Source of the DNA: an uncultured Bacilli bacterium
GTDB lineage: Bacteria; Bacillota_I; Bacilli_A; RF39; UBA660
Direction of reading: 5' to 3'
Assembly: GCA_910587325.1 (NCBI GenBank)
Contig: CAJUKB010000004.1
Span: 16,988-80,987 of the forward strand
Length of the DNA: 64,000 nt
Part shown: positions 31,462-64,000 of the stretch, one piece after another
How the letters are laid out: the number at the start of each line of letters is the position of its first letter
Position numbering within the stretch: position 1 is the stretch's first letter
The notes under the pieces: generated by a model
Database searches by the model: none
What the model was told of the DNA's origin: nothing
What the model saw: only the letters and a program-made list of their open reading frames with translations
Program-made: the position numbers and the translations under genes

Positions 31462-32227
31462 CTGTAAACAACGGGAGTTTTATAATCTAAGGAACCATGA
31501 ATGCGAATGTTATTATACCAGTTTACATAATCAAATAACTCGCACTCTAACTCCTCAAATGAGGAAAATCTTCGGTTATAAGCAAACTCCGTTTTTATGA
31601 TTTTATATGTCGCTTCTGCTACCGCATTGTCATAGGGACAGCCTTTTTTAGATAGGGATCTCTTTATTCCAAATGTTTCTATTAATTCCTCTATGATTTT
31701 ATTTTTAAATTCATTTCCTCTGTCTGTATGAAATATATTTATCTTTCTTAAATCATAAGAAATTTTACTGAATGCTTTATAACTAGTTTTGCATCCTTAT
31801 GAATTCCTGCTGCATACCCTATAATTTCTCGATTCCATAAATCGAGTATTAAACAGATGTAATTCCATTTTCCTGCTACATTTACATACGTTAAATCACT
31901 TACGACTACATCTAATTGTTTTTCTCTTTCAAATTCTCGATTTAAGATATTTTCTCCTTCTTCCTCATTGCAAGATGCTTTATGTACTTTAAATTGTTTA
32001 ACTGTATAGTTACTTACTAAACCATTTAAGTCCATAATTTTTCTTATTCTTCTTAGACTTACTTGGTAGCCTAATTCTTGCAATTTTACTTTTATTTTTC
32101 TTGAGCCATAATTATTTCTACTTTCTTTAAATATCTTTATGATTAATTCTTCTAGTTCTTTATCTTCACGTTTGTTTTTTCTTTCGTAGTAGACAAGAGC
32201 TCTGGACACTTTTAGAGTTTTACACAT
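31462..32227 (-). pseudogene. IS3-family transposase OrfB (DDE integrase core), frameshifted
   Basis: The 159-aa ORF 31748-32227 carries the rve-domain N-terminal half. The remaining C-terminus (...HGSLDYKTPVVYRQQMSL*) lies in another frame between 31462 and about 31750. Confidence 0.55.
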
Positions 32228-32683: not shown

Positions 32684-33930
32684 GTGGCAAAAATTGCAAA
32701 AACATTGAAAGAATTAAAAGAAAATTTAGAAATAGAAGATTACATAGAAGAAACAGAAATAGAAAATTATGATTTGCATATTCTAACAAATGAGATAAAT
32801 GAAGAAGCATCTTATTTAATGGATAAACGAGAAGAAGAATATATAAAACACTCTTTAGAAGATATAGTAATCATAGTAATATTAGGATTATTTGCAAATA
32901 GTAACACCTTTGTAGAAATTGAAATATTTGCAAAAAAACATTATGAATGGCTTAGGAATTATCTAGAACTTTCTTATGGTTTGCCTTCTATTTGTACAAT
33001 TAAAAGAGTAATAGCAGCATTGAATCCGAAAGAATTAGAGGAAATGTGTAATCATGTTTTTTTAAACTTTGTAAAAGTAACTCAAAAACCAATATATGTA
33101 AAAAATGGATTAAAATTGATGGATATAAATAGTTTAGATGGAAAAACGGCAAATAATTCTAAAAGAAACACAATAGAAGGATATATAAAACCAACAAATG
33201 CGATGAGTGCCTATTCTGTTGTTAATGAAAAATGTTTAGCAACAGAATTTATAAGTGAAAAGACAAATGAAATACCAACATGTCCAAAATTATTAAAAAG
33301 GTTAAATATCAAAGATGTAGCAATCACATTTGATGCTTTAAACACCCAAAAAGATACAATAGATTACATAGTAAAAAATGAGGGATATTATGTTGCACCC
33401 ATAAAAGATAATCAAAGCATACTAAAGGAAGATTTGGAACTATATTTTCAAGATTTATATTTAATAAAAGTTGGAAATGCCAAAGTGTATGAAGAAATAG
33501 AAAAATCTCATAATCAAGCAGAAAAAAGAACATATATATTTACGAATGATATAGATTGGATATACTAAAAAGAAAAATGGTCAGATTTAAAAAGTATAGG
33601 TGTACTTATAAAAGAGATAAATGGAGAAGAAAAAGAAAGAAAATATTTCATAAGCAATATAAAGGCAAATCATATAGAAATATTATCTAAAATAATTAGA
33701 AATGAATGGAGCATAGAGAATAAGTTACATTGGTATTTAGACATGGTATTTTTAGAAGATAAGAATAAATGTTATATTGAGAATAGTCAAAAAAACTTAA
33801 ATATAATGAGAAAATTTTGTCTTGGAATATTAAAAATAGTGAAATCTCATTACAATATGAGCATGAATTCTATTCGTTTTCAATTGAGTATTGATTTTGA
33901 AAATGAAATAGAGCAACTTCTTAAATTGCT
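32684..33930 (+). pseudogene. ISAs1-family (H-repeat-associated) transposase with an internal TAA stop
   Basis: N-terminal DDE_Tnp_1_assoc-like region (DIVIIVILGLFANSNTFVEIEIFAKKHYEWLRNYLELSYGLPSICTIKRVIAAL). A single in-frame TAA at 33566-33568 (DWIY*KEKWSDLKSIG) is followed by the conserved C-terminus (WSIENKLHWYLDMVFLEDK...). Confidence 0.65.
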
Positions 33931-43332: not shown

Positions 43333-44181
43333 TCACCTCTTAATCCATTTTTCTATTTCTAAACCAAGTAAATAAATATAGTAAAAAATTCTTAATATTA
43401 ATAGTTTGAAGATATTCATTTTATTTATATATTTTTCATAATAATATTGACTTTTTTTTAAAATTTTAAACTTTTCTATTCGATTAATATTTTTATCCAC
43501 ACAAGCACTTAAAGCGTGAATAACTGTCACATTGTTATCAACATAAGTCGCATATCCTTTTTCTTTTAATTTTTTTGCCATAATAATTTCTTCGTAATAT
43601 AAAAAGGTATTTTCATCAAAATAGCCGATATCTTCTAAAACCGTTTTCTTTATAATGAAGAAACATCCCTTTACTACATCTACTTTGGTTAAATCTTTTT
43701 TATATTCTTCATTTTTGTACGTTAATAAAGACAGTTCAAAACGTCTAAAAAATGGAATATTGGCTACAAGTTCTGATAGAAATGTGGGTAATTTCCAACC
43801 ACGAGAAACACCAGTTGGTTCTTTTATATTGGGAGCAATGACTGCTACGTTGTTTTTTTCTAAATTTTCAACTAAATTCTTTATTTCTTTTTCTGTTACT
43901 ATGATATCTGGATTGGAAATAATAATATTATCTACATCATGATTTTTTATTAAATATTGAATTCCTACATTATTTCCAGAAGCGTATCCTTTATTTTCTT
44001 TTGCTTCCACTATTTTAATTTTGTGATTTTCAAATTGTTTTAATTCTTTTAGTGAATTATCAGTGCTTTTATTATCTACTATAATAATAACATCTAGTAT
44101 TTTATAATTTTTGATTTCTTCTAACATTAATTTTGTATTTTCACTATCATTATAATTTAGTATAACTATTCCATTTTTCAT
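43333..44181 (-). CDS. GT2 glycosyltransferase
   Basis: 282 aa. GIVILNYNDSENT...VDNKSTDNS...NPD motifs. RBS AGAGGGTAA. Confidence 0.7.
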   Translation of the reverse strand: MKNGIVILNYNDSENTKLMLEEIKNYKILDVIIIVDNKSTDNSLKELKQFENHKIKIVEAKENKGYASGNNVGIQYLIKNHDVDNIIISNPDIIVTEKEIKNLVENLEKNNVAVIAPNIKEPTGVSRGWKLPTFLSELVANIPFFRRFELSLLTYKNEEYKKDLTKVDVVKGCFFIIKKTVLEDIGYFDENTFLYYEEIIMAKKLKEKGYATYVDNNVTVIHALSACVDKNINRIEKFKILKKSQYYYEKYINKMNIFKLLILRIFYYIYLLGLEIEKWIKR

Positions 44182-44234: not shown

Positions 44235-44262
44235 TTTCCTAGAAATATGAATTTCTAGGAAA
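44235..44262. promoter_or_regulatory. Perfect 12-bp-arm palindrome TTTCCTAGAAAT-ATGA-ATTTCTAGGAAA, candidate operator
   Basis: Inverted repeat with a 4-bp centre, 54-81 bp upstream of the ATG of the first gene (44181) of the minus-strand glycosyltransferase operon. Confidence 0.4.
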
Positions 44263-44334
44263 GTTTTGACAAAAGAGAATTGTTGTTTTAATACTTCAAA
44301 TAAAAAAAGCACTAGTAATTATATCTAAAAAATA

Positions 44335-44888
44335 TGGCTCTAGATAATTTAGTGGGAATCTAAAATTAAAGATTTCTAAGTAAATAAAAGGGAAAATAGG
44401 TATTTTTTAGATTAATTTCAAAACACCTGTTTTTTTATGGAGAATACGCTTTATTTTTTTGCTTTTCTATCTTTTTTAGTTATTCCACTTATTTTTCCAT
44501 TCAATATGTACATTACCCTTAGTCTAAAAAATCAAAATTTTGATATCCAACTCCAACTCTTTTGATTACTTTTATTTTGTTGTTTAATCCTTCTGCAAAT
44601 CCATTACTAAGTCTTTCATCTATAAATGAATTTACTATTTAAGGTAACCAATTTTCTATTGTTTTATTTGCTTCTATCATTTCCTCCATTTCATAAATTT
44701 TTACTATTTCTGCCCATTCTCTTCATTCTATTTCTACATACTCGTAATTTGTTGTATATGATACATTAAAAAAAAGAGATAACTTTATTCGTTATCTCCT
44801 CACCTAATTTTCTAGTTATCATACAAAAAGTCCCCACTAAAATTTCTTGATGCTGATTTTTTTATCCCCACTAAATTATCTAGAGCCA
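44335..44888. mobile_element. ISL3-family derived non-autonomous (MITE-like) element of about 550 bp
   Basis: 22-bp perfect terminal inverted repeats TGGCTCTAGATAATTTAGTGGG at 44335-44356 and reverse-complemented at 44867-44888. GGCTCT is the typical ISL3 terminus. Flanking 8-bp near-identical direct repeats AAAAAATA/AAAACATA. An internal minus-strand remnant SNGFAEGLNNKIKVIKRVGVGYQNFDF matches an ISL3 transposase C-terminus. Confidence 0.55.
44767..44798 (-). terminator. Rho-independent terminator (GAGATAAC-loop-GTTATCTC plus T8), probably terminating the lic operon
   Basis: 8-bp GC-containing stem with a 7-nt loop, followed by 8 T on the minus strand, downstream of the BCCT gene stop (44988) and inside the ISL3 remnant. 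Confidence 0.55.
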
Positions 44889-44987
44889 AAAACATAGAAA
44901 CGTAGCGTAAAAAGGTGAGCGTTATCTAACTCTCGATAACACATAACTTATGCAAATATTCTTTTTACAGATTTTTCAATAAAGAGT

Positions 44988-46517
44988 TTATTCTTTTTTG
45001 TTGTTTTTAGTAGGTTCTTCTAAATACCGTTTAGCGTCTTTAATAAAACTAATCACAATCATAATTATCACTATTCCTATTGGAAAAGCCGCGACTATGC
45101 TCACAGATTGTAAATTATTCATAGAACTTTGTGAAAATACCAAAGCGATTGGTAATAAAATTAATAAGATGCACCATATTAATTGCATCATTCTATGCGG
45201 TTTTTCATCTTTAGCAAGTTTGTGATAACTATAGCATGATGCCGTATAAGCAATGGAATCGAAAGAAGTTGCGTAAAATGCAATCATTGTAATTAATAAT
45301 AATATTAAAATAAACGGAAAACATGGAATGGTTTTAATTATAGAAATAATAATATTATAAATATCTCCACCATTTTGATACATTGCCACAAAATCAAATT
45401 GCCCACTCATTTGAAGGCCTAAAGAATGATTTCCTAATATTATAAAACTAATAATTGTAGACCCTACACCAAAGATATATCCCCCAATAATCGTTTGTTT
45501 AACAGTTCTTCCTTTTGATATATTACCAATAAAAAAGGGAGCAGCAACACACCAAACCATCCAATAAGCCCAATAATAAATTGTCCAATTTTGTGGAAAA
45601 CTTGTTTCTCTTAAAGGATCTGTTGTCGTCGATAATCCTATAAAATTTTCTATCATTCGTCCTAATGAAGAGAAACCATTTTCAATAATAAATCGCCCTT
45701 GTCCTCCAAAAAATAAAACAAATAATAAAATACCAAAAAATAAATAAATACAAATTTTTGCAAGTAAACTCATTCCTTTAAATCCATGTAAAAGCGTATA
45801 CGTATATACAATACAAGTTATTAAAAGAATAATTATGGTAATTACTGTCCTGCTTATGGTTATATGAAATACTTCTCCAATAATTGCAGCCATTAAAGGA
45901 GTAGCAACGCTAAATGTTGTAGCAGTTCCAGCAAGTAATGCAAATACTGCTAGCAAATCTACTATTCTTCCTGGTAATTTATCTGTAAATTTTCCAAGTA
46001 AAGGCCTACACGCTTCTGAATATTTTTGTTTTTCTCTTTTTCTTACATGTAACATAAAGCCAAAAGCAATTGCAAGAACTAAATAAAAACTCCACGGAAT
46101 AAAACTCCAATGAAATATTGGAAATACGCTTGCCCAATCTTCCATATTTCCTAAATGCGCAATATGACTTTCTCCTGCATACATAATCCATTCCGAAAAT
46201 GAATAGAATAAGATGTCTGCCGCAAGTCCACACGTAAACATCATAGCCCCCCAAGTAAAGAAGGAATATTTTGGTTTTTCATTTTTTTTGCCTAATACAA
46301 TATTTCCATACTTCGAAAACGCAATAATTAAGGACAAAATAAATATCCCTAAACCCATTATCAAATAATATACACCAAAAGTATCCCCAAAAATAAATCT
46401 AATTTTACTTAAAACTAGATTAGATTCTGTAGGTAGAAAAATAAATAGGACGCATAGAGCAATAATTAAAACAAGTGGCATTAAAGTGATTAGCCAATCA
46501 ATTTTCTTTGTTTTCAT
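44988..46517 (-). CDS. BCCT-family (betaine/carnitine/choline) transporter, probable choline importer
   Basis: BCCT signature WTIYYWAYWMVWCVAAPFFIGNISKGRT, about 12 TM helices. Start taken at the internal Met MKTKKIDWL. The ORF track starts at 46565. Confidence 0.7.
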   Translation of the reverse strand: MKTKKIDWLITLMPLVLIIALCVLFIFLPTESNLVLSKIRFIFGDTFGVYYLIMGLGIFILSLIIAFSKYGNIVLGKKNEKPKYSFFTWGAMMFTCGLAADILFYSFSEWIMYAGESHIAHLGNMEDWASVFPIFHWSFIPWSFYLVLAIAFGFMLHVRKREKQKYSEACRPLLGKFTDKLPGRIVDLLAVFALLAGTATTFSVATPLMAAIIGEVFHITISRTVITIIILLITCIVYTYTLLHGFKGMSLLAKICIYLFFGILLFVLFFGGQGRFIIENGFSSLGRMIENFIGLSTTTDPLRETSFPQNWTIYYWAYWMVWCVAAPFFIGNISKGRTVKQTIIGGYIFGVGSTIISFIILGNHSLGLQMSGQFDFVAMYQNGGDIYNIIISIIKTIPCFPFILILLLITMIAFYATSFDSIAYTASCYSYHKLAKDEKPHRMMQLIWCILLILLPIALVFSQSSMNNLQSVSIVAAFPIGIVIIMIVISFIKDAKRYLEEPTKNNKKE

Positions 46518-47244
46518 TTTTTTCGCCTGCTTTCTTAAAATTAGCGTAACTGTTATCAATTGCAATTAATTCTTGATAATTATCTATTTCTACTATATCT
46601 TCCTTTTCTATTTCATAAACGTGTAAATCAAATTCTTCAGGATAACAAAACATTGCAATATTATCCCAATAAATGGTAGTATTGTTTTTATTTATGAACT
46701 CTTCTTCCACATATTTTTTTAATTTTTTTCCATCTTCTTTTGTCCATCTTGAAATGCTCCACAAACGGTATCCATCTTTTCCACCCTCAATACTACAATT
46801 TGTAATTTTTCCACAGTTATCAGTTTGCAAAAACCACTCATTTGTATATTCTTTGCACCACGAACAACTATATCCAGATTTTTCAAAGTATGGATTTAAT
46901 ATGCTTGGATTTTTAATTATTAAGTCGGCGTCTGTAATAATAATTTCTTCTAAAAATTCTCTAGCAACATACAAAGAAGAAATATTGTTGGTTTCTTCAT
47001 AATATTTATTTTCAATTAATTTTATATTCGGATAGTCTTCTAACAAAATATTAAATTTATCTTTTAGGTATCCAACAACAATATATATTTCTTGTATTCC
47101 ATTTTGGTATAAACCCTTTATAATAGTATCAATCATTCTTACGCCATTTACTCTTATTAATGGTTTTGGCGTTTCAATTGTAACAGGGTTTAATCTGCTT
47201 CCCTTGCCCGCTGCTAAAATAAGGGCTCTTTTTATTTTATTCAT
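46498..47244 (-). CDS. licC: CTP:phosphocholine cytidylyltransferase (LicC-like nucleotidyltransferase)
   Basis: 248 aa. ALILAAGKGSRL nucleotidyltransferase motif, in the same operon as a choline kinase and LicD. Confidence 0.65.
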   Translation of the reverse strand: MNKIKRALILAAGKGSRLNPVTIETPKPLIRVNGVRMIDTIIKGLYQNGIQEIYIVVGYLKDKFNILLEDYPNIKLIENKYYEETNNISSLYVAREFLEEIIITDADLIIKNPSILNPYFEKSGYSCSWCKEYTNEWFLQTDNCGKITNCSIEGGKDGYRLWSISRWTKEDGKKLKKYVEEEFINKNNTTIYWDNIAMFCYPEEFDLHVYEIEKEDIVEIDNYQELIAIDNSYANFKKAGEKNENKEN

Positions 47245-49024
47245 TTATTTCTTCCTCCAATTCTTTGGCAACTATTTTATAAAAATCTTTTGCATACCTA
47301 TATTGTTTTATAGAGTATTCTCCAAATTCTATACCTAAGTTTCTTTTGAATTCACACCAATTACTCCAGAGCAAACCGCAAGCCGAAATATAGGCATAGA
47401 TTTTTAGACGAGTTATTTTTTTACATTTGTTTTTGAAATAGATAGAAATTAAATTATCAATTTCTTCCTTATCATATAATGAATATATACAAAACATAGC
47501 AATATCAACATGTGGATCTTGCATACCTGCATATTCCCAGTCAATTAATTTTATTTCATTTTTTGTAATCAAAAAATTATCTGGTACTGCATCAATATGA
47601 GTCAAACTTCTACTTTCTACATTTTTTTCAATAAAAGGTTTTAATTTTCTTACATTTTTTTTAGTTGTTTCATAATCTTCATAAACAGAGGCGTTTCCAT
47701 TCCATAGCAACTCAAAATAATCGATTTGTTTAAAAATATCAAATTTATGTTCCACTTTTAATTTTAAATTATGAAAATCTCTTAGTTTTTTCATACATTT
47801 TTTTATGTCCTCTTGATTATGTGGATTGCATACTTTTGCTCCTTCTATAAATTTTGTAATTTTATAACCATTCTCAGGATTTATATAATAAATGTCATCA
47901 CAAATGTTTTGATTTTTTATTTTTAAGTAAGTTGCTGCTTCTTGTTTTCTATTTATCAGTTGGTCTGTTCCTTCTCCTGGAATACGCATAATGTATTTTT
48001 GATTTTGGCATTCAAATATAAAAGATTTATTGGTCATACCTTTTTTCAATATTTGTATATTTACAATTTCTTTCGTATCTACTTTAAAGACTTCTTTTAT
48101 AATTTCTATTGCATCATTATTTAAACTATTAGAATTAAAATCAAAATCTCTTAATTCTTCATAGGTATTTATTTCTATATAATCTTCATTATTAACAAGA
48201 TTCGGTTTAAAATATTTAGTATTCTCTTGTAATAAAATATCTTCCCAATATGAATTCTTGTATTTTTTCAAATTGTTACATTCTTCTAGGGTTTTTACAA
48301 AAAGTTTTTTATCTTTTTCGCTAATATAGGCAATTCCTATCATTTTATTTCCATATTCTTTTGTATTCACTTTTGTTAATTCAAATTTTTTGTTAATTCT
48401 TAGAATACTATCCTCATCTTTCTCATTATTTAGCATATACCAAGAATACAATTCAACAGTATGAAAGGGATTTTCCTTACAATAAATGTCACAAGGTATA
48501 ATGTAAGAGTTTCCTATATTCTTTTTTGCTAAGTTAAGGGAATACAAATTGTTTCTTTCACTATATTTTGGATTTATTATTAACTCAACATTATATTTGT
48601 CTATTAAGTATTCGTATTTTTCTTTCATAAAGCCTACTATAATTTGGATATTCGTAATGCCAACTTCTTGTAGTTGTTTTATAATACGTTCAATTAGAAC
48701 CTCATTTTTTACTTCTAAAAGTCCTTTTGGTATTTCTGTATTTATAGGAACCATTCGCATTCCGTATCCCGCTGCCAGAATAATGGCATTTCTAGTTTTT
48801 GAAGAATGGATTTCTTTTATCGCTTTTTCTGTTAATTCTTTATTATTTGTTAAATAGCCATATTCTATTAACTTTTTTAAACTTACATTTATTACCCCCA
48901 AAGATGTTTTGGTTATTTTTGATAGTTCTCTTTGAGTTAACTCCCTTTTATTATTAAAAATCGTTATTATAATATCATACATAATTTTGTTCATGAAAAT
49001 CAAATACTCTTTTCTTATGAACAT
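47237..49024 (-). CDS. Fusion protein: HTH, LicC-like nucleotidyltransferase and LicA-like choline kinase
   Basis: 595 aa. N-terminal HTH (RELTQRELSKITKTS), AIILAAGYGMRM nucleotidyltransferase motif, and a C-terminal choline/ethanolamine kinase motif LIDWEYAGMQDPHVDIAMF. Confidence 0.65.
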   Translation of the reverse strand: MFIRKEYLIFMNKIMYDIIITIFNNKRELTQRELSKITKTSLGVINVSLKKLIEYGYLTNNKELTEKAIKEIHSSKTRNAIILAAGYGMRMVPINTEIPKGLLEVKNEVLIERIIKQLQEVGITNIQIIVGFMKEKYEYLIDKYNVELIINPKYSERNNLYSLNLAKKNIGNSYIIPCDIYCKENPFHTVELYSWYMLNNEKDEDSILRINKKFELTKVNTKEYGNKMIGIAYISEKDKKLFVKTLEECNNLKKYKNSYWEDILLQENTKYFKPNLVNNEDYIEINTYEELRDFDFNSNSLNNDAIEIIKEVFKVDTKEIVNIQILKKGMTNKSFIFECQNQKYIMRIPGEGTDQLINRKQEAATYLKIKNQNICDDIYYINPENGYKITKFIEGAKVCNPHNQEDIKKCMKKLRDFHNLKLKVEHKFDIFKQIDYFELLWNGNASVYEDYETTKKNVRKLKPFIEKNVESRSLTHIDAVPDNFLITKNEIKLIDWEYAGMQDPHVDIAMFCIYSLYDKEEIDNLISIYFKNKCKKITRLKIYAYISACGLLWSNWCEFKRNLGIEFGEYSIKQYRYAKDFYKIVAKELEEEINE

Positions 49025-49119
49025 AATATCATATTATCTTTTAAATGGGAAGTAAAAAGCATATTTTTTTCTCTATATAAAATATTTTCCTTATGCTATA
49101 ATTTTAGTAGGTGATAGTA

Positions 49120-49929
49120 ATGAATAAAGCACAAAAACATCAATTAGAAATGGCTTTGGAAGTAGACCGTATCTGTAAGAAATACAATTTAAAGTATAAC
49201 ATTGATGGTGGTACTCTTCTTGGTGCTATTCGTCATAAAGGTTTTATTCCTTGGGATGATGATTTAGATATTGATATGCCAAGACATGATTATGAAAAGT
49301 TTTGTGAAGTAGCACAAAAAGAATTAGGAGACAAATATTTTTTACAAACTTGGGATACAGAACCTAATTATGCTATGACTTTTGCAAAAATAAGAGAAAA
49401 TAATACTATTTATTTAGAAAACGTTGCAAAAAATGTGGATGTTCATCAAGGAATATGGATAGATATATTTCCTCATGATGTGATTACAGATAATGTATTT
49501 TTACAAAAAATATTGGTAAAAAAGGCCGTGCTTTATCGTTTGATGTTGCAAATAAAAAAAGGATATATTATAGAAACACCTTCGTTTAGCAAAAGAGTTA
49601 TTTTAGCCTTCTTAAAGTTTCTTGCTATCTTCACTTCCGCAAAATCTTTAAAGAAAAAGTTACAAAAAATGCAATTGCGTTATCAAAATACGAAAACAAA
49701 CAGTCTAGTAGATTATTCTAGTGTGCTTTTTAATAAAATGATTTACGATAAAAAGGTAATGAATGAATATGCTCCTGTTTCTTTTGAAGGAAAAACACTA
49801 ATGGGGCTTAAAGATTATGATACTTATCTTACCTATCTTTATGGTGATTATATGACGCCTCCTCCAGAGGGACAAAGAGAAAATCGGCATGGTATAATTC
49901 AAATTGACTTTAATGCAAAGCAAAAGTAA
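49120..49929 (+). CDS. licD: LicD-family phosphocholine transferase
   Basis: DGGTLLGAIRHKGFIPWDDDLDIDM and IDIFP motifs. Start taken at the ATG with RBS AGGTGA. The ORF track starts at the GTG at 49111. Confidence 0.75.
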   Translation: MNKAQKHQLEMALEVDRICKKYNLKYNIDGGTLLGAIRHKGFIPWDDDLDIDMPRHDYEKFCEVAQKELGDKYFLQTWDTEPNYAMTFAKIRENNTIYLENVAKNVDVHQGIWIDIFPHDVITDNVFLQKILVKKAVLYRLMLQIKKGYIIETPSFSKRVILAFLKFLAIFTSAKSLKKKLQKMQLRYQNTKTNSLVDYSSVLFNKMIYDKKVMNEYAPVSFEGKTLMGLKDYDTYLTYLYGDYMTPPPEGQRENRHGIIQIDFNAKQK

Positions 49930-49964
49930 ATATCTGTTTATTGAAAATGGATATTTTTTTGTTA

Positions 49965-50012
49965 AAAAAGACAGTTTCTTTTTTTATTTTGATACTGTCT
50001 TTCTTATTTTTT
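49965..50012. terminator. Hairpin AAAGACAGT-N19-ACTGTCTTT plus T-run between convergent genes
   Basis: 9-bp stem followed by CTTATTTTTT, between the licD stop (49929) and the stop of the minus-strand gene at 50018. Confidence 0.5.
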
Positions 50013-50017
50013 CGTTT

Positions 50018-52195
50018 TCAATTTTTAAACACATCTAAAATCACTTTTTTGGTATTTTCACTACTATACTCTTCACTTTTTTTACGTGCATTTTTGATAA
50101 GTTTATTTTTTTTCGTTGTTTTTAGATTTAAAAACGTATCCATTTTATTTGCTAATTCTTTATCATCACTCGGATTAAACGTTAAACTATTTTCACCATC
50201 TATTAGATAGTCACTTGGACCATATTTGTTGCTACCAATTACGAATGTTTCACAGGCCATGGCTTCTAGTCCCGTTAGCCCCAATGACTCACTTTTCATT
50301 CTAGTCGGATAAATAAAAGCGTCTATGGCATTATAAATACTTACAAGTTCTTCTTGGCTTACTAATGGTTTTCTTATGATCACTTTTTCTAATTTATATT
50401 TCTGTATCCACTTTTTTAGTTGAGGTTCTTCACTTCCACTACCAACGAGCAAGAATTTCACATCTTCTTTTTTGTTTATTTTACGGAATTCATGAATGGC
50501 TTTTACATATACATCATATCCTTTGTCTTTTTCAATTCGTGCAATAAAGGCAAAATATGTATATTTACTATCTAATTCTACATTTTTTAATGCCGTCTTT
50601 TTATTCATTTTTTTAAATTTTGCTAAATCGACCCCACCCGATGGGAAAATTACTATTTTTTCTTTTGCAACCTTATAATTTTTAATCAATACTTTTTTAA
50701 AATAGTTAGAGGGAGAAATTACAATATCCGATCCTTTTAGGAAAAGTCTAGTGAGTCCTAAATACCCTTTGTCCACATTTGTATCTGCTACAATATCATT
50801 TCCATGGGTATTTAACACTAGTTTGGTATTTTTTGCGCATAAGGCTGGAATAAATACTCCTGCTGTTGTATGGGAAACAAAATGAACATAGATATAATCG
50901 TAATTATTAAAAACTGCTTTTAATAAAGAGAGACCACACATTTTTATATAAGAAAATAATTTTTTTATTTTTCCTGTTGTTTTATACATTACAACTAAAT
51001 CTATTGTATGATTTGCTTCTACTAATAAATCATATGTATTTTTCACAAATATTCCATAATGAGGATATTCTTTACTTGGATACATATTGCTTACAAATAA
51101 GATATCCTTTTTCATTTTACCATTATCATTTTTTGAAATTAAGAACAATAAACTTAGAAAAGGAATTAAATATGGGTTTATTAAAACATTTCCCAAATTG
51201 GATAAAATAAGTAGAAAGACAAATATAATTGTATAGTTCTTTTTTAAATGACTAAATTTAAATACATACGCAAAGTAGAAAAAATAAAAGAATAGCCCTA
51301 AGATTCCAATGCTATAAAATAAATCAAAAATATCACTTTCTACATAATGAATGGAATTTAGTTTTTCGTATCCTATACCTAATACTTTTTCCATACCACT
51401 ACTTTCTTTAAAACTTTTTTGAACATTTTTTAATAAATCGATTCTTTCATTAATGAAAATCTCTTTCGTACTATATGGTTCTAAAGATGTTTTATCTTTT
51501 GTTAAATCCATCTTAGGTATATAAACGGCAAGCCCTATACATAATGTTAAAACAAGAAGAAGAGATTTTAGTTGGTTCTTTTTTATTGTTTTTGCTATTT
51601 TTCTTAGGTTACCAAAAAGGTAAAAGAGAACTAACATAAGAATACTAATAAAGAAAATTTCATTGTTTATGAATAGAGTTAAAAGGCAAAATGCTATTAA
51701 AAATAATCCTTTTAATAAATAACTATTGCTTTCTATTATATATAATAGTGATACACCAAAAAGAAGAAGAAATAGATTTAAGATTTCATTATTTATGGTA
51801 AAGCCAAATAAAGAGAAAATGAGTAATACTATAATATATAGTAAAGATAAAATAGTAATTGTTTTTTTAGTCATAGTTTCTTTTTGATATTGAGTAAAGA
51901 ATAGAATGAAGGTTGGTAAAGAAAAAATAGTAAGTAGATTGGTAATTTCAAACCAAGGGTTTAGATGGTTTGTAAATACATGGAGAAGATAAATAAAAAA
52001 ATATATTCCTAAAAGGGCAAAAATTTTTTTATGTTTCGTATTTTTTACTAAATAATAAACACTATACAATAGAAATAATCCTTTTAAAGTCAAAGTTATT
52101 AAAAAGGTAGTAGTGTTTATCAAAGATATACCATCTAAAAAAGGTAATAAAAATATAAGTAGGTATAGTCCATCTATTTTTTTTAATTTTGTCAT
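50018..52195 (-). CDS. Fusion of an O-antigen ligase/polymerase-like polytopic membrane domain with a C-terminal GT4 glycosyltransferase
   Basis: 725 aa. About 10 N-terminal TM helices, then a GT4 domain (VGSGSEEPQL...ESLGLTGLEAMACETFVIGS). Confidence 0.55.
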   Translation of the reverse strand: MTKLKKIDGLYLLIFLLPFLDGISLINTTTFLITLTLKGLFLLYSVYYLVKNTKHKKIFALLGIYFFIYLLHVFTNHLNPWFEITNLLTIFSLPTFILFFTQYQKETMTKKTITILSLLYIIVLLIFSLFGFTINNEILNLFLLLFGVSLLYIIESNSYLLKGLFLIAFCLLTLFINNEIFFISILMLVLFYLFGNLRKIAKTIKKNQLKSLLLVLTLCIGLAVYIPKMDLTKDKTSLEPYSTKEIFINERIDLLKNVQKSFKESSGMEKVLGIGYEKLNSIHYVESDIFDLFYSIGILGLFFYFFYFAYVFKFSHLKKNYTIIFVFLLILSNLGNVLINPYLIPFLSLLFLISKNDNGKMKKDILFVSNMYPSKEYPHYGIFVKNTYDLLVEANHTIDLVVMYKTTGKIKKLFSYIKMCGLSLLKAVFNNYDYIYVHFVSHTTAGVFIPALCAKNTKLVLNTHGNDIVADTNVDKGYLGLTRLFLKGSDIVISPSNYFKKVLIKNYKVAKEKIVIFPSGGVDLAKFKKMNKKTALKNVELDSKYTYFAFIARIEKDKGYDVYVKAIHEFRKINKKEDVKFLLVGSGSEEPQLKKWIQKYKLEKVIIRKPLVSQEELVSIYNAIDAFIYPTRMKSESLGLTGLEAMACETFVIGSNKYGPSDYLIDGENSLTFNPSDDKELANKMDTFLNLKTTKKNKLIKNARKKSEEYSSENTKKVILDVFKN

Positions 52196-53484: not shown

Positions 53485-54897
53485 TCACTTTTTTCTTCTT
53501 TTTTCATCTTCCCAAAAATCAAAATTATCAAATTTATCTAATTTTTCTTTTAAGGAAGTGTCTTGGGTTTCTTTTGTTTCTTTCTCTGTATTTTGTTCTA
53601 TTTTTATTTCTTGCACAAGTTCTTCTTTTTCTAGTTTTTTAACATCCGCTTTTGAATTTCTATTTATTTTTTTCTTATGTTTGTTCTTTTTCTTTAATAG
53701 ACATAAAATCAATAAGAAGGCAAATACTAAACCAACTCCAAAAGCAATACAAATATACATATAAGTATTTAAATCTTTAGTTAAACTTTCCACTTCCTCT
53801 TGATTCCATACTTGGAAAGTTCCTTCTTCTGTATCATAACTATAATAATCGTATTTTCCTGTTTCAATGTTCATACCATAGCAAATGACAAAACGACTAT
53901 TTTCACTTAAACGATATATAGGAACTTCTACTTCGTTAATGCTTATTGTTCCATTAGTATAATTTTTAAGTTCGTTAGGAAAATCCGTCAAGTATAGAGT
54001 CAAAGCATTCGCATTTAATTCGTTATAAATAGTGTAAGTATTATTCTCTTCATTGTAGATAGCTAGTATCACTTTGCCTGTTGTATCCTTAAGTCCCACT
54101 AAAGTAAATCCAGTTGTTTCACTATAAAAAGCTGGAATGGTAAATCCATTTATTTCTATTGTTTTTTCTTCATACATATTGAGCTGTGGTAAACTTTTGC
54201 CATTTTTAATAATCGTGTAAGATTTTTCTCCTATCTTGACTTCAATTGGATTCGTATCTTCTACGTTCACATTGATAACATATGTTTTCGTAGCTCCACT
54301 TTCTGCTGTTACCACTACATTAAAGGTATTGATACCTTCTGATACTTCTACTTCTCCTGTTCCTGAAACACTTGCATGTGATTCATTTGCTTTGGCGGCG
54401 ATTTTAACAGAATTGACAGTAGATGGAACTGTTACAGAGTATTCTAAGGTATCTTTGTTGAATGATGGAGTAAGTTCATATCCTTCAATAGATAAAGAGG
54501 CTAGATTTGCATCCGTTGCTTTTTCTCTTACAGGAACCACTGTTACTCTTTTAGAAGCAGATACGTTTGTGGTTGCTCCATCTTTACTAGTAATATCTCC
54601 AGTAGCAGTAAAGGAAATCATTCCTAAACTCGTAGCTTTACATGTCACAGTTAGTGTTTTAGTTGTATTATTTCCGTTACTTGTAGAATCTGCAAAGCTT
54701 TGGGTACACCCACTTGTGGAACCGGCAGAAACAATTTTTACATTCCAAGCTGCCGTTCCTTTTAATGTTAATGTTGCTTTTACAGTACTTCCTAATTCTA
54801 CGCTTGTTGGAGCGCTTAAAGAATAAGTTGCTGCTGCATGCACCATATAGGGGCACAAACTAAACAAACATAACAAACGAATTAACTTTCTTTTCAT
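53485..54897 (-). CDS. Secreted, membrane-anchored surface protein with a cadherin-like beta-sandwich domain
   Basis: 470 aa. Signal peptide, an ANLASLSIEGYELTPSFNKDTLEYSVTVPSTVNSVKIAAKA region typical of the clostridial cadherin-like domain, a C-terminal TM helix and a charged K/E-rich tail. Confidence 0.5.
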   Translation of the reverse strand: MKRKLIRLLCLFSLCPYMVHAAATYSLSAPTSVELGSTVKATLTLKGTAAWNVKIVSAGSTSGCTQSFADSTSNGNNTTKTLTVTCKATSLGMISFTATGDITSKDGATTNVSASKRVTVVPVREKATDANLASLSIEGYELTPSFNKDTLEYSVTVPSTVNSVKIAAKANESHASVSGTGEVEVSEGINTFNVVVTAESGATKTYVINVNVEDTNPIEVKIGEKSYTIIKNGKSLPQLNMYEEKTIEINGFTIPAFYSETTGFTLVGLKDTTGKVILAIYNEENNTYTIYNELNANALTLYLTDFPNELKNYTNGTISINEVEVPIYRLSENSRFVICYGMNIETGKYDYYSYDTEEGTFQVWNQEEVESLTKDLNTYMYICIAFGVGLVFAFLLILCLLKKKNKHKKKINRNSKADVKKLEKEELVQEIKIEQNTEKETKETQDTSLKEKLDKFDNFDFWEDEKRRKK

Positions 54898-54911
54898 TTC
54901 ATCCCTCTATT

Positions 54912-56666
54912 CTATCTTTGTGAAATATTTTGTGTTCCTAAAAGATATTGTCTAAGTCTCAATAAATCTGCGGAATTTATATTACTATTTACAAGTTTTG
55001 CAGCTTCTAAATAAACACCGCTTAATTTCGATGATCCAATCAAGTGTTGACGCATTTTAAGTAAATCTGCGGAGTTGATTGTTCCATCTCCGTTTAAATC
55101 GCCATAAACAACAGCTGTATAGGTTTCGCCGTTATAAGTGAATGTGGTACCTGTTCCAATTTTGTCGGCTTTACTAGTAATTGTTACTTGATTTTGTAAT
55201 TTAGATTTCAAAGTAGAAATACTTTCTCCAACAGTAAATCCTTTCACCAAACCAGAACCTACTTTTAGTCCAACAGAAGCTAGCTTCGTTGTAAGTGTTA
55301 CAGGTATACTCGGACTACTTCCATTACTACTATTTGAACAAATCGTACAAGCACTACCACTTGCAAATACTAATCCCGCTTTATAAGGAGATTCTGCTCC
55401 ACTTGATGCACCTAAATTGTAAAAATTATAAAGTCCGCTATAATTGATTCCCTTATATTCAAAAGCATTTCCTGTTGTAGCTGCACCTCCGCCCATTCCT
55501 GATTCTTGTAAAGCTAAAGCAGCAAGATAAACGGCACTAACTCCTGATGTTTTTCCCGCTTCTATAAAGATAGAAGCATAACTTTGATTGTCAAGAATCG
55601 AAATTCCATCCATAAAACTTCCCTTTATAATACTCCCTATCATTGCTTCTGTATGGCTAGAGTTGTAGCGTAAACTTTCAAATTGAAAGATATATTCTTC
55701 GTTTAAAAAATTTCTTGGGTCCATGTAGTAAGCAAGTGTTTCTCTATTTGGAACGTACCATCCTTTATCATTTCCTGCTTGCACATAACTTCCGTTTTCT
55801 ATTAGATAATATGCTGTACTTCCATTAATAGCAGATACCCCATTTTCATAAGTTAATGCAGTATCAAAATTTTCATTTGTCTGTAATGCTTCAAAAGTCC
55901 AACTTGGATGTTTCGTATGTAAAGCACGTAAATAAGGCTTATAAGAATCAGGAAATCCTGCTTGGCTTAATTTTGTTTCAAATGCCGCATCGGTAATGGT
56001 ATCTTGTCTTGGAACCGTTGTTTTATTTCCTCCTGGTCGATTATAAACATTTGCCATATTATTATAAACCGGAATGGTAAATGTAAATGGTAAATCTAAA
56101 AAATTACTATTTGCATAGGCTTTATACGTTTTAGAAGATTCATTAGAAGGTGCCGCAATATTGGTTTGGTATTGGTGTGAATACATACTATAGTTGCTGT
56201 TTGGATTGACATTGAATTTTTTTAAATAAATCGTATATTGTCCTTGCGCAATGTAAGAACCATTAATATAAATAGCTCCCCCTATAATGGCTTTTTTAGG
56301 TGAAGTCCAAGGCCTTAAGTAAACATCGCTACCATCAATGACAACTCCTGCTGCACATACATACCCGGTGTACTCTCCATAAGTAGCTTTATAAAACCCA
56401 GTAGAACAACCAGATGTTGGAGCAGTTTTGGTAAGACCATGAAGAAATACAATATCATCAGTACTTAAATTCACTAAAATTTGATTATTTTTAGTATCTG
56501 TCGTTGGTTTTACTCTGATTTTTTGCGTATCGTTTTTAATCTTTCCTGGTATTAATTCTTCTGCTTCTACCTGAATAGGAAAAGAAAAGATAGAAGAAAA
56601 AGTAATACTAAAAATAAGGGTTATTGAAAATACTTTTGCAAAAAACTTTTTTACCTTTTTAGGCAT
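54912..56666 (-). CDS. Secreted GH73-like N-acetylglucosaminidase (putative peptidoglycan hydrolase) with C-terminal dockerin type I repeats
   Basis: 584 aa. Signal peptide, a YLAALALQESGMGGG motif resembling the GH73 catalytic region, and C-terminal repeats GDLNGDGTINSADLLKMRQHLIG / INSADLLRLRQYLLG. Confidence 0.5.
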   Translation of the reverse strand: MPKKVKKFFAKVFSITLIFSITFSSIFSFPIQVEAEELIPGKIKNDTQKIRVKPTTDTKNNQILVNLSTDDIVFLHGLTKTAPTSGCSTGFYKATYGEYTGYVCAAGVVIDGSDVYLRPWTSPKKAIIGGAIYINGSYIAQGQYTIYLKKFNVNPNSNYSMYSHQYQTNIAAPSNESSKTYKAYANSNFLDLPFTFTIPVYNNMANVYNRPGGNKTTVPRQDTITDAAFETKLSQAGFPDSYKPYLRALHTKHPSWTFEALQTNENFDTALTYENGVSAINGSTAYYLIENGSYVQAGNDKGWYVPNRETLAYYMDPRNFLNEEYIFQFESLRYNSSHTEAMIGSIIKGSFMDGISILDNQSYASIFIEAGKTSGVSAVYLAALALQESGMGGGAATTGNAFEYKGINYSGLYNFYNLGASSGAESPYKAGLVFASGSACTICSNSSNGSSPSIPVTLTTKLASVGLKVGSGLVKGFTVGESISTLKSKLQNQVTITSKADKIGTGTTFTYNGETYTAVVYGDLNGDGTINSADLLKMRQHLIGSSKLSGVYLEAAKLVNSNINSADLLRLRQYLLGTQNISQR

Positions 56667-61771: not shown

Positions 61772-62199
61772 CCTCTTAGTCTCCTTCCCATCAAATAAGC
61801 ATCTTCACCATCCAGATAATACTTTTTTCTAATATAGACAACTTCAAAACCAAATTTTTTGTATAGTTGAATCGCCGGAGTATTGCTTTTTCGAACTTCT
61901 AATGTTAATAACTTCACACTTTCCTTAATATCGCTTAACATATAATCCATTAAACAACTAGCAATTCCTTTATTTCGTTCTTCTTCTTTTACAATAATAT
62001 CTCCAATATCAACGGTTTCCTCTAATTCAGTATACATTAAAAATCCTTTAATACTCCCTTCTGCTTCATAGACCAATATTTTTATAAGTTTATTATTTTC
62101 CATTTCTTTCAAGTTGTTGGTTTTGGAAAAATTAGGTGATAAACGATTACCTAGTTCTTCTACTTGCTCTATATCTTCTATTTTTAATTTACGAATCAT
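61768..62199 (-). CDS. rimI: Ribosomal-protein-alanine N-acetyltransferase (GNAT)
   Basis: 143 aa GNAT fold, positioned between tsaB and tsaD as in the canonical operon. Confidence 0.7.
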   Translation of the reverse strand: MIRKLKIEDIEQVEELGNRLSPNFSKTNNLKEMENNKLIKILVYEAEGSIKGFLMYTELEETVDIGDIIVKEEERNKGIASCLMDYMLSDIKESVKLLTLEVRKSNTPAIQLYKKFGFEVVYIRKKYYLDGEDAYLMGRRLRG

Positions 62200-62753
62200 T
62201 TTTGTACCTCAATTAATTTGACATAAAGTGGTTTTACAGAATGTGGATTTATTGCTTCTAAAGATTTAGAAAATTCTATAATTTTTTCATAATCTATTTC
62301 TATATCTTCTACATCATTTTCGTCAGTTTCATACTCTTTATTACTTACATAAGAGTAGTTATCCACTAAGTTATTCTCTTTATCAAACGTTCCTAGAAAA
62401 ACTCCATTTTTTTCTCTTTCCACAATTCTTACCTTTTCATGAGAAAAAGAAACAGCTTTTATAAGAAGGCTTGATAACGTTTTAATCGGAATTTGTAAAG
62501 TATAAGCAAGGGTTTTAGCAATGGTAACTCCAATTCTTACTCCAGTAAAAGAACCAGGTCCATTCACAATTAGTATTTCATTTAATTCTTCTACTTCTAT
62601 TCCTTCTTTCTTTAAAACCTCTATCAAAACAGGCATCGTCGTAATACTTTGATTTTGTAAAGTTTCAACTTCCTTTTTTATTATTACTTTATTTTCTTTA
62701 TATAATACAATGGTAATTTTATTACTATGCGTATCTATAAACAATGTATACAT
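62196..62753 (-). CDS. tsaB: tRNA threonylcarbamoyladenosine biosynthesis protein TsaB (YeaZ)
   Basis: MYTLFIDTHSN...ILIVNGPGSFTGVRIGV. Start taken at the Met with RBS GGAGAGGAAG. The ORF track starts at 62777. Confidence 0.8.
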   Translation of the reverse strand: MYTLFIDTHSNKITIVLYKENKVIIKKEVETLQNQSITTMPVLIEVLKKEGIEVEELNEILIVNGPGSFTGVRIGVTIAKTLAYTLQIPIKTLSSLLIKAVSFSHEKVRIVEREKNGVFLGTFDKENNLVDNYSYVSNKEYETDENDVEDIEIDYEKIIEFSKSLEAINPHSVKPLYVKLIEVQK

Positions 62754-62801
62754 AAACTTACTTCCTCTCCAAAGCACAAAAAAACTCGTACACGAGCCCT
62801 A

Positions 62802-63263
62802 TTATAACACACTATGGCATAAATCTTCATACATATTGCCATGTGGTTCAACAACTAATACTCTTGTATTTTCATCAATGACTTTAAATTTAATATCTAG
62901 TCTTTCTTCGGGTAGACAATCACGAATTAAATCTGACCATTCAATAATGGTTACCCCACCTTTAGAAAAGTAGTCATCTAGTCCCACATTTTCGCGACTT
63001 CCCTCTAAGCGATATACGTCCATATGATATAAAGGAAGTTCTCCATTTGGATATTCTTTTACTAAATTAAACGTTGGAGAAGTGACATTTTCTTCTATTC
63101 CTAAAGCTCCAGCAAACCCTTTTACAAAAACGGTTTTCCCACTTCCTAGTTCTCCTTCTAAGCAAATGACCATATTAGGAAACTTTTCACTTTCTAAATT
63201 TTGTGCTAGTTCTAAAGTATCTTTTTCGTTTCTTGAAGTATATTTGTAATCCATTATTATCAC
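62802..63263 (-). CDS. tsaE: tRNA threonylcarbamoyladenosine biosynthesis ATPase TsaE (YjeE)
   Basis: 153 aa. Walker A LEGELGSGKT, typical TsaE size. Confidence 0.8.
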   Translation of the reverse strand: MIIMDYKYTSRNEKDTLELAQNLESEKFPNMVICLEGELGSGKTVFVKGFAGALGIEENVTSPTFNLVKEYPNGELPLYHMDVYRLEGSRENVGLDDYFSKGGVTIIEWSDLIRDCLPEERLDIKFKVIDENTRVLVVEPHGNMYEDLCHSVL

Positions 63264-63327
63264 CTATTCCTATTATAACAAAAGAAATTTATTTAATTCA
63301 ATTCCTTTGCACGTTAATTGACATTGC

Positions 63328-64000
63328 TTAACTTCTTTTTTTACTCATTATTCTTATCCCATGCAATATTGTTTTACGATTAAAGTTTCTATTTGCTTCT
63401 TTCATAAGTTCTTTTATGGTATCAATTACAATTTTACGGGTTTCTTCTTCTAGTTTTGTAAAACTTTTAAGAATGCTTGGTATCGTTCTCAATTTTAACT
63501 TTGTAAGTTCTTCTACTGTTTCAATATGACTTTTTTCTAATACCTGATACAACGTATTAATGAATATTTCTCTTTCTTTTTTATCAATTTTTTCTAACCA
63601 ACTTGATACCGTTGTTCTTAACTTATTACTTGTTTCATCTACTTCTTTTAAAGTAATAAATTTGGTCCCTTCTACTTGCCAAGTTAAAGCATCATGTTGC
63701 CAAATGCCAATCGAGTCACTTTTGATTACTTTATATTCACTTTTTTGAGTTAAAAGCATTCCAATGATAGAAGTCTCAGGAAGAAACGTTTTTATTTTAG
63801 GAAGCGTATTTAAATAAGATTGAGACATTACAAAGTCTTCTGTAAACCCCGGACCATCATTATTAAAAATGAACTTAATTCTTTTTTGTATTTTCTTCTT
63901 ACATTTTACTCCTGCATAGACAGCTAAATTTCCACCTTTAGAATGTCCTCCTAGATAAATATGACATTTGTTCCAAGAAACCACTTTATTCACGTAATTT
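63328..64000 (-). CDS. Lipase-like alpha/beta hydrolase (DUF2974/Mbeg1-like). The 5' end runs off the window.
   Basis: GGHSKGG lipase-type nucleophile motif. The ORF remains open to the window end. Confidence 0.5.
   Translation of the reverse strand, partial: NYVNKVVSWNKCHIYLGGHSKGGNLAVYAGVKCKKKIQKRIKFIFNNDGPGFTEDFVMSQSYLNTLPKIKTFLPETSIIGMLLTQKSEYKVIKSDSIGIWQHDALTWQVEGTKFITLKEVDETSNKLRTTVSSWLEKIDKKEREIFINTLYQVLEKSHIETVEELTKLKLRTIPSILKSFTKLEEETRKIVIDTIKELMKEANRNFNRKTILHGIRIMSKKRS

Follow-up and report, generated by a model that had tools for sequence, protein, structure and literature searches.

Members of the ISL3 family of insertion sequences (ISL3, IS1181, IS1165 and IS1411 are examples) have terminal inverted repeats (IRs) of 15-39 bp that typically start GGCTCT, and an 8-bp target duplication is the norm for the family in ISfinder. 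MITEs are short elements that encode no protein, are bounded by terminal IRs and a target duplication, and are defined by the presence of several dispersed copies of the miniature form; MITEAba12 is reportedly a bacterial MITE derived from an IS via internal deletion. In invertons such as fimS of E. coli and those of Bacteroides capsule loci, which occur in both orientations and have a cognate recombinase, IRs bracket a few hundred base pairs upstream of a surface-structure operon. The element described here lies in a 64-kb stretch of DNA (the window) and resembles each of these systems in part. With the ISL3 family it shares IRs starting GGCTCT and an 8-bp AT-rich target duplication, and its full-length relatives encode one transposase only, in which a zinc ribbon at the N-terminus is combined with a DDE_Tnp_ISL3 domain; it differs in that three quarters of the transposase gene are missing. 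Like IS-derived MITEs such as MITEAba12, it is small, non-coding and intergenic, with parental IRs, a target duplication and an internal deletion, but it is known in one copy and still contains a 100-codon transposase remnant. The placement of its IRs is that of fimS and the Bacteroides invertons, whereas its single orientation, the absence of a nearby recombinase gene and its IS interior with a target duplication are not. The best explanation, to which a probability of roughly 0.9 was assigned, is that the element is a dead, internally deleted ISL3 insertion sequence, persisting as a solitary relic.

The element is situated in the 806-bp gap between two cell-wall sugar operons, a lic-type cluster and a glycosyltransferase operon; it begins 100 nt after the BCCT stop codon and ends 154 nt before the GT2 start codon, which bears out the placement given in the original prediction. 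All flanking genes are on the minus strand, and the transposase direction of the element is the same as that of both operons. Besides the BCCT transporter, the lic-type cluster contains a LicC-like nucleotidyltransferase, a choline-kinase/nucleotidyltransferase fusion and LicD, and the GT2 operon continues with TOD1/MUCI70, GT1, ABC-transporter and further GT2 genes. An exact search of the 64-kb window located TGGCTCTAGATAATTTAGTGGG at 44335-44356 and its reverse complement at 44867-44888, as predicted, and these were the only two matches in the window, with no third at up to 3 mismatches (expected number 0 in 100 shuffles); the IR arms reach 31 nt at 90% complementarity. The predicted element of about 550 bp with perfect 22-bp IRs is therefore real, although its boundaries required a small correction: the 22nd base was assigned to the target duplication because the base preceding GGCTCT differs among other copies and only a 21-bp register fits the empty sites described below. 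The functional IR is accordingly the perfect 21-bp repeat GGCTCTAGATAATTTAGTGGG, and the element runs from GGCTCT to AGAGCC over 552 bp (44336-44887). The same correction applies to the degraded 8-bp duplication that had been proposed: its existence is supported by the empty sites, but the sequences first given for it, AAAAAATA and AAAACATA, are one base off, the correct plus-strand copies being AAAAATAT and AAAAACAT, identical at 7 of 8 positions. At the left end, full-length copies have three TAGTGGGGA repeats, presumed to be putative transposase-binding sites, the third of which is degenerate in the window copy (about 44806-44816). The hairpin beyond the transposase stop has a folding energy of -8.4 kcal/mol (z=-2.2) on the minus strand and -11 kcal/mol (z=-1.6) on the plus strand. 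An Rfam search of the whole window yielded no RNA family at gathering score, and the element DNA had no blastn match in the plasmid collection. Please refer to Table 1 for the coordinates of all features.

Table 1. Coordinates of the element, its internal features and its neighbouring genes in the window.
Feature	Position	Strand	Evidence or remark
Whole defective ISL3-family element, 552 bp	44336..44887	-	Two-block alignment to L046; same site in 18 related assemblies
Left terminal inverted repeat IRL (transposase-proximal), GGCTCTAGATAATTTAGTGGG on minus strand	44867..44887	-	Same terminus in full-length copies and MAG contig ends
Right terminal inverted repeat IRR (downstream of transposase stop), GGCTCTAGATAATTTAGTGGG	44336..44356	+	
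Target-site duplication copy 1, AAAAATAT (minus strand ATATTTTT)	44328..44335	.	Identical to single copy at empty site
Target-site duplication copy 2, AAAAACAT (minus strand ATGTTTTT)	44888..44895	.	One substitution
Subterminal repeat of IR core, TCAAGAAATTTTAGTGGGGA on minus strand	44831..44850	-	Alignment with L012, L011 and L035
Intrinsic-terminator-like hairpin, 11-bp stem and U8	44765 (or 44773)-44801	-	Between IRL and transposase promoter
Deletion junction at imperfect microhomology TAT(A/G)T(N)ATAC	44756..44767	.	Two BLAST segments overlap there
Transposase C-terminal remnant, about residues 331-433 of 433	44451..44755	-	Recognisable, 100-codon
Nonsense codon TAA (TAT, Tyr, in intact L046)	44639..44641	-	
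Frameshift, run of 6 A versus 7 A in intact copies	44526..44531	-	
Weak hairpin 3' of transposase stop, T runs on both strands	44396..44432	.	Kept in full-length copies
BCCT transporter, last of lic-type cluster	44988-46565	-	Upstream of element
GT2 glycosyltransferase, first gene of operon	43333-44181	-	Downstream of element

Exact scans with the 21-bp terminus were carried out on 185,579 species genomes (one per species), the JGI metagenome collection and IMG/VR. The species genomes contained 27 stretches with the terminus, nearly all within ~50 nt of a contig end; 22 of these belong to a single MAG, MGBC108787 ('uncultured Bacilli'), and the other five to three MAGs, two of them rabbit-gut 'Lapin' and one 'Tenericutes', while the terminus was absent from the viral contigs of IMG/VR. 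Two kinds of MAG contig end were found, corresponding to the two ends of the window element. Such clustering at contig ends is what a multicopy IS leaves behind when short-read assemblies break at its copies, so the IS family is present in several copies and active elsewhere. A complete copy, L046:912-2496, was recovered from the metagenome collection; it is 1585 bp long and contains a gene for 433 aa (443 aa from an upstream TTG). In seven further copies (L065-L071) both the length, exactly 1585 bp, and the 21-bp termini are the same. The full-length transposase scores 283.5 bits (cut-off 180) against NCBIfam NF033550 'ISL3 family transposase' and covers positions 1-240 of the 240 of Pfam DDE_Tnp_ISL3 (PF01610), in addition to Zn_ribbon_ISL3. 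It belongs to a cluster of 34 near-identical 433-aa proteins on dozens of contigs, several of which are labelled mouse gut, and its closest named relatives in the plasmid collection, for example IS1181, show only ~30% protein identity to it. Judged against the elements of that collection, the 1585-bp type appears to be an unnamed, divergent ISL3 member; it is common in MAGs of uncultured Bacilli from mouse and rabbit gut and in 'Tenericutes' MAGs, whose assemblies it breaks.

Both flanks are visible for four of these full-length copies (L046, L065, L067 and L068); L069 extends only 2 nt past one end, and L066, L070 and L071 abut a contig end. Perfect 8-bp AT-rich duplications surround L065 (TTTAAAAA) and L068 (TATTTTTT), and the other two of the four, L046 and L067, have none, perhaps because copies have recombined with each other or because the metagenome contigs are chimeric. 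An 8-bp duplication has also been reported for another ISL3-family element or transposon (PMC9782665). Several related sequences were noted in passing. Contig L044, which comes from a related organism and is 86% identical to the Mbeg1-like/TsaE/TsaD region of the window (62145-63998), opens with the right end of a copy of this ISL3 family (L044:1-675), at 88% identity to L046; host relatives therefore do carry this IS. At a contig end of MGBC108787 (L021:21-72) the 31-nt left IS end GGCTCTAGATAATTTAGTGGGGAGAAAAAAA is tandemly duplicated, which is either an assembly artefact or a case of abutting IS ends. Another ISL3 copy, distinct from these and decayed, lies at 2400-3470 of L038-L043. It has 70-77% identity to L046, is broken up into three ORFs (107, 80 and 147 aa), is kept across many gut assemblies and adjoins a polysaccharide-synthesis locus (Polysacc_synt).

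Alignment of the window element to L046 gave two blocks, window 44336-44776 to L046:912-1361 (87% identity) and window 44756-44887 to L046:2367-2496 (85% identity), between which ~1.02 kb (L046 positions about 1346-2366) is absent. The absent sequence comprises the ribosome-binding site, the start codon and the first ~330 residues of the transposase. The two blocks overlap at a microhomology, represented by TATGTAATAC and ATATTATAC in L046 and by TATATGATAC in the window, where the junction reads TTGTTGTATATGATACATTAAAAAAAAGAG; this overlap points to an illegitimate, slippage-type deletion as the probable mechanism. Translation of the interior on the minus strand matches positions 173-236 of the 240 of Pfam DDE_Tnp_ISL3 (PF01610) with E=4.9e-16, in agreement with the ISL3 transposase C-terminal remnant noticed originally, and with both lesions repaired the remnant has 82% amino-acid identity to residues 343-433 of the L046 transposase. 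When the repaired remnant (90 aa) was used as a protein query it matched only fragments of 70-154 aa, which are pseudogene pieces (L038-L043) or contig-end fragments (L044), and missed the 433-aa cluster at 82% identity. No ORF of at least 30 aa was found on the transposase strand of the element, so the predicted lack of an intact ORF holds, and the opposite strand contains two short ORFs only, of 42 and 47 aa. A truncated transposase or inhibitor protein was considered as a product and ruled out, since the remnant has no start codon or ribosome-binding site and contains one nonsense codon and one frameshift. Because of the deletion, the nonsense codon and the frameshift, and with no intact transposase gene, the window copy is a defective, non-autonomous and non-coding ISL3 member. 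Both of its 21-bp termini are unchanged, while its interior differs from L046 by 13-15%; its parent was therefore a different lineage of the IS type from L046, with the termini kept by function, and this parent lineage was not found in the collections searched.

Empty sites were located via GT2 orthologues that are 97%, 89% and 79% identical in other assemblies. In L057 and L058 the flanks are 97-98% identical to the window and the element is absent, the L057 site reading ...ACGTTTCT ATATTTTT TAGATAT... where the minus strand of the window reads ...ACGTTTCT ATGTTTTT [GGCTCT...AGAGCC] ATATTTTT TAGATAT.... Likewise, L059 and L060, and also L063, have one TATATTTT (ATATTTT(T/C)) and no element, so that the empty sites of three related lineages each contain a single target copy. 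One target copy at the empty sites against two in the window establishes an 8-bp duplication with one substitution, of the length typical of ISL3, and fixes the ends of the element at GGCTCT and AGAGCC. Occupied sites were examined in 19 assemblies with an identical GT2 or BCCT protein; 18 of these span the element and the contig of the nineteenth stops inside it. All 18 spanning assemblies agree in the site, the orientation and the flanks of the element, which is fixed in this lineage. Divergence from the window amounted to 0-7 of 552 nt in the element versus 0-2 per 600 nt in the flanks, with the exception of L049 (NCBI MAG GCA_948716395.1), which has an indel in the GT2 gene. In that assembly (L049 5337-6189) the GT2 gene downstream of the element is broken into ORFs of 146 and 82 aa, either as a frameshift/indel pseudogene or through an assembly error.

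These observations are best explained by the following history. A 1585-bp ISL3 IS encoding the 433-aa transposase inserted into the AT-rich intergenic ATATTTTT between the lic (phosphocholine) cassette and the GT-ABC operon, with duplication of 8 bp. The copy lost ~1.02 kb, probably by deletion between two short similar sequences and either before or after insertion, which left it with only about a quarter of the transposase gene and no start codon or ribosome-binding site; the remnant afterwards gained a nonsense codon and a frameshift. As the termini are intact, a cognate transposase could in principle still mobilise the copy in trans. The locus offers a clean example of in-place IS decay, in which a microhomology deletion, a nonsense codon, a frameshift and matching empty sites are all found together.

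The strong minus-strand terminator that had been noticed inside the element was recovered as a hairpin of -14.7 kcal/mol (z=-4.4) with an 11-bp stem and U8. It is kept in L046, where the equivalent hairpin has -12.3 kcal/mol (z=-3.5), and in L012 and L011, and is therefore native to the left end of the IS, where, from its position, it would protect the transposase gene against transcription entering from beyond the IS; the left end also retains a -10-like box, TATCAT in the window and TATAAT in L046. The orientation of this terminator is that of both operons, so it may at most strengthen termination of lic read-through into the GT2 operon. A weak terminator-like hairpin (-9.9 kcal/mol, z=-0.9) is present 3' of BCCT before the element. 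The 154-nt interval between the element and GT2 is 98% identical to that of the IS-free L057, so the resident GT2 promoter region is intact. The physiological effect of the element is likely nil or small, and a neutral fixed relic is the most economical view. A more consequential reading would have the relic co-opted as an insulator, its terminator uncoupling the recently acquired lic cassette from the GT2/ABC-transporter operon and the element hence being fixed in every lic-positive strain of the lineage, or else would have it mobilisable in trans and seeding a MITE family in uncultured gut Bacilli; taken together, these proposals were considered unlikely. As a separate observation, a perfect 12-bp palindrome, TTTCCTAGAAAT-ATGA-ATTTCTAGGAAA, is located at 44235-44262 in the presumed GT2 promoter region and could be an operator-like site; in the IS-free L057 the same palindrome is imperfect (ATTTCCATGAAA).

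That the 552-bp form might instead be a non-autonomous MITE that spreads in its deleted state, with full-length ISL3 copies at other places in the genome providing the transposase in trans, was judged quite improbable. The element is short and non-coding and has terminal IRs and a target duplication, both of its 21-bp termini match those of active copies and are perfectly kept despite the 13-15% interior difference from L046, two of the three subterminal repeats are intact, and the host relative represented by L044 carries a copy of the IS family. However, a second pair of termini ~530 bp apart was found in none of the 185,579 species genomes, the JGI metagenomes or IMG/VR, and the 64-kb window, which is the part of the source genome covered for copy counts and for a working transposase, contained no further copy, no solo IR at up to 3 mismatches and no other IS homology, so that dispersed miniature copies were absent from the genome, metagenome and viral collections and from the window alike. 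Moreover, short-read contigs from 18 samples cross the element, which would be unusual for a multicopy repeat given the behaviour of assemblers, and its interior varies more than the flanks between strains, as expected of an unconstrained relic. A literature search for ISL3-derived MITEs returned nothing specific. The original description of the element as an ISL3-derived miniature therefore stands as regards its derivation, which is supported by the full-length alignment, the transposase family, the empty sites and the duplications around full-length copies, but not as regards a MITE family, since one copy was found.

The neighbouring lic cassette raises a further alternative, namely that the element is the edge of a composite or IS-mobilised unit that delivered this 5-kb block, and this was regarded as very improbable. 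The entire lic (phosphocholine) cassette (~44988-50017; LicD, a choline-kinase/NTP-transferase fusion, a LicC-like gene and the BCCT transporter) is a ~5-kb accessory block, and it is absent from the closest relatives, L057-L060, in which BLAST homology to the window restarts exactly at the outer edge of the element and high identity to L057 restarts only ~20 nt past its other end. Against such a unit, the lic cassette of L063 (93.6% identical) occupies the same place although the IS site there is cleanly empty, and the element is bordered by an 8-bp duplication of its own. Near 50018, where the cassette ends on its far side, there is no second IS copy or IR, and no second IS copy or end across passenger genes was detected in the 64-kb window (IR at up to 3 mismatches). 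Delivery of the cassette by the IS is ruled out because homology continues for a short stretch past the IS, which has a target duplication of its own, and because L063 is lic-positive but IS-free. In the lic-negative L057/L058 and L059/L060 a 725-aa glycosyltransferase gene directly adjoins the GT2 gene. Because the cassette of L063 is closer to the window (93.6%) than its adjacent GT2 operon (86%), comparison of the sequences suggests that the cassette may be exchanged between lineages by recombination, and among the variable features of the locus its presence or absence is probably the one of greater biological relevance.

The possibility, raised originally as an alternative, that site-specific inversion between the 22-bp IRs toggles the GT2 operon was given almost no credence, for although perfect IRs around ~500 bp just upstream of a surface-polysaccharide operon are a classic setting for phase variation and the segment contains 13 promoter-like hexamers (no excess over the 8.2 +/- 3.1 of shuffled sequence), the arms and interior are homologous to a transposable IS with an 8-bp target duplication and clean empty sites, the opposite orientation was sought and 18 of 18 spanning assemblies had the same one, and no tyrosine or serine recombinase was present among the neighbouring genes annotated by Pfam assignment from ~23 to 64 kb of the window.

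For annotation, the 806-bp lic-GT2 gap should be labelled as containing a defective IS and not a regulatory switch; beyond this the element has little significance, being an ordinary kind of object. Two other transposase-related ORFs sit between glycosyltransferase clusters of the window, one of 159 aa with an HTH_21 domain (31748-32227, minus strand; IS3-type N-terminal part) and one of 294 aa with a DDE_Tnp_1_assoc domain (32684-33568, plus strand), and the polysaccharide region thus holds debris of several IS families. Finally, two proteins encoded at 53485-56666, beside cell-wall polysaccharide genes, have a Cadherin-like and a Dockerin_1 domain, respectively, and such surface proteins are unusual for a low-GC (27.7% GC) gut bacterium.
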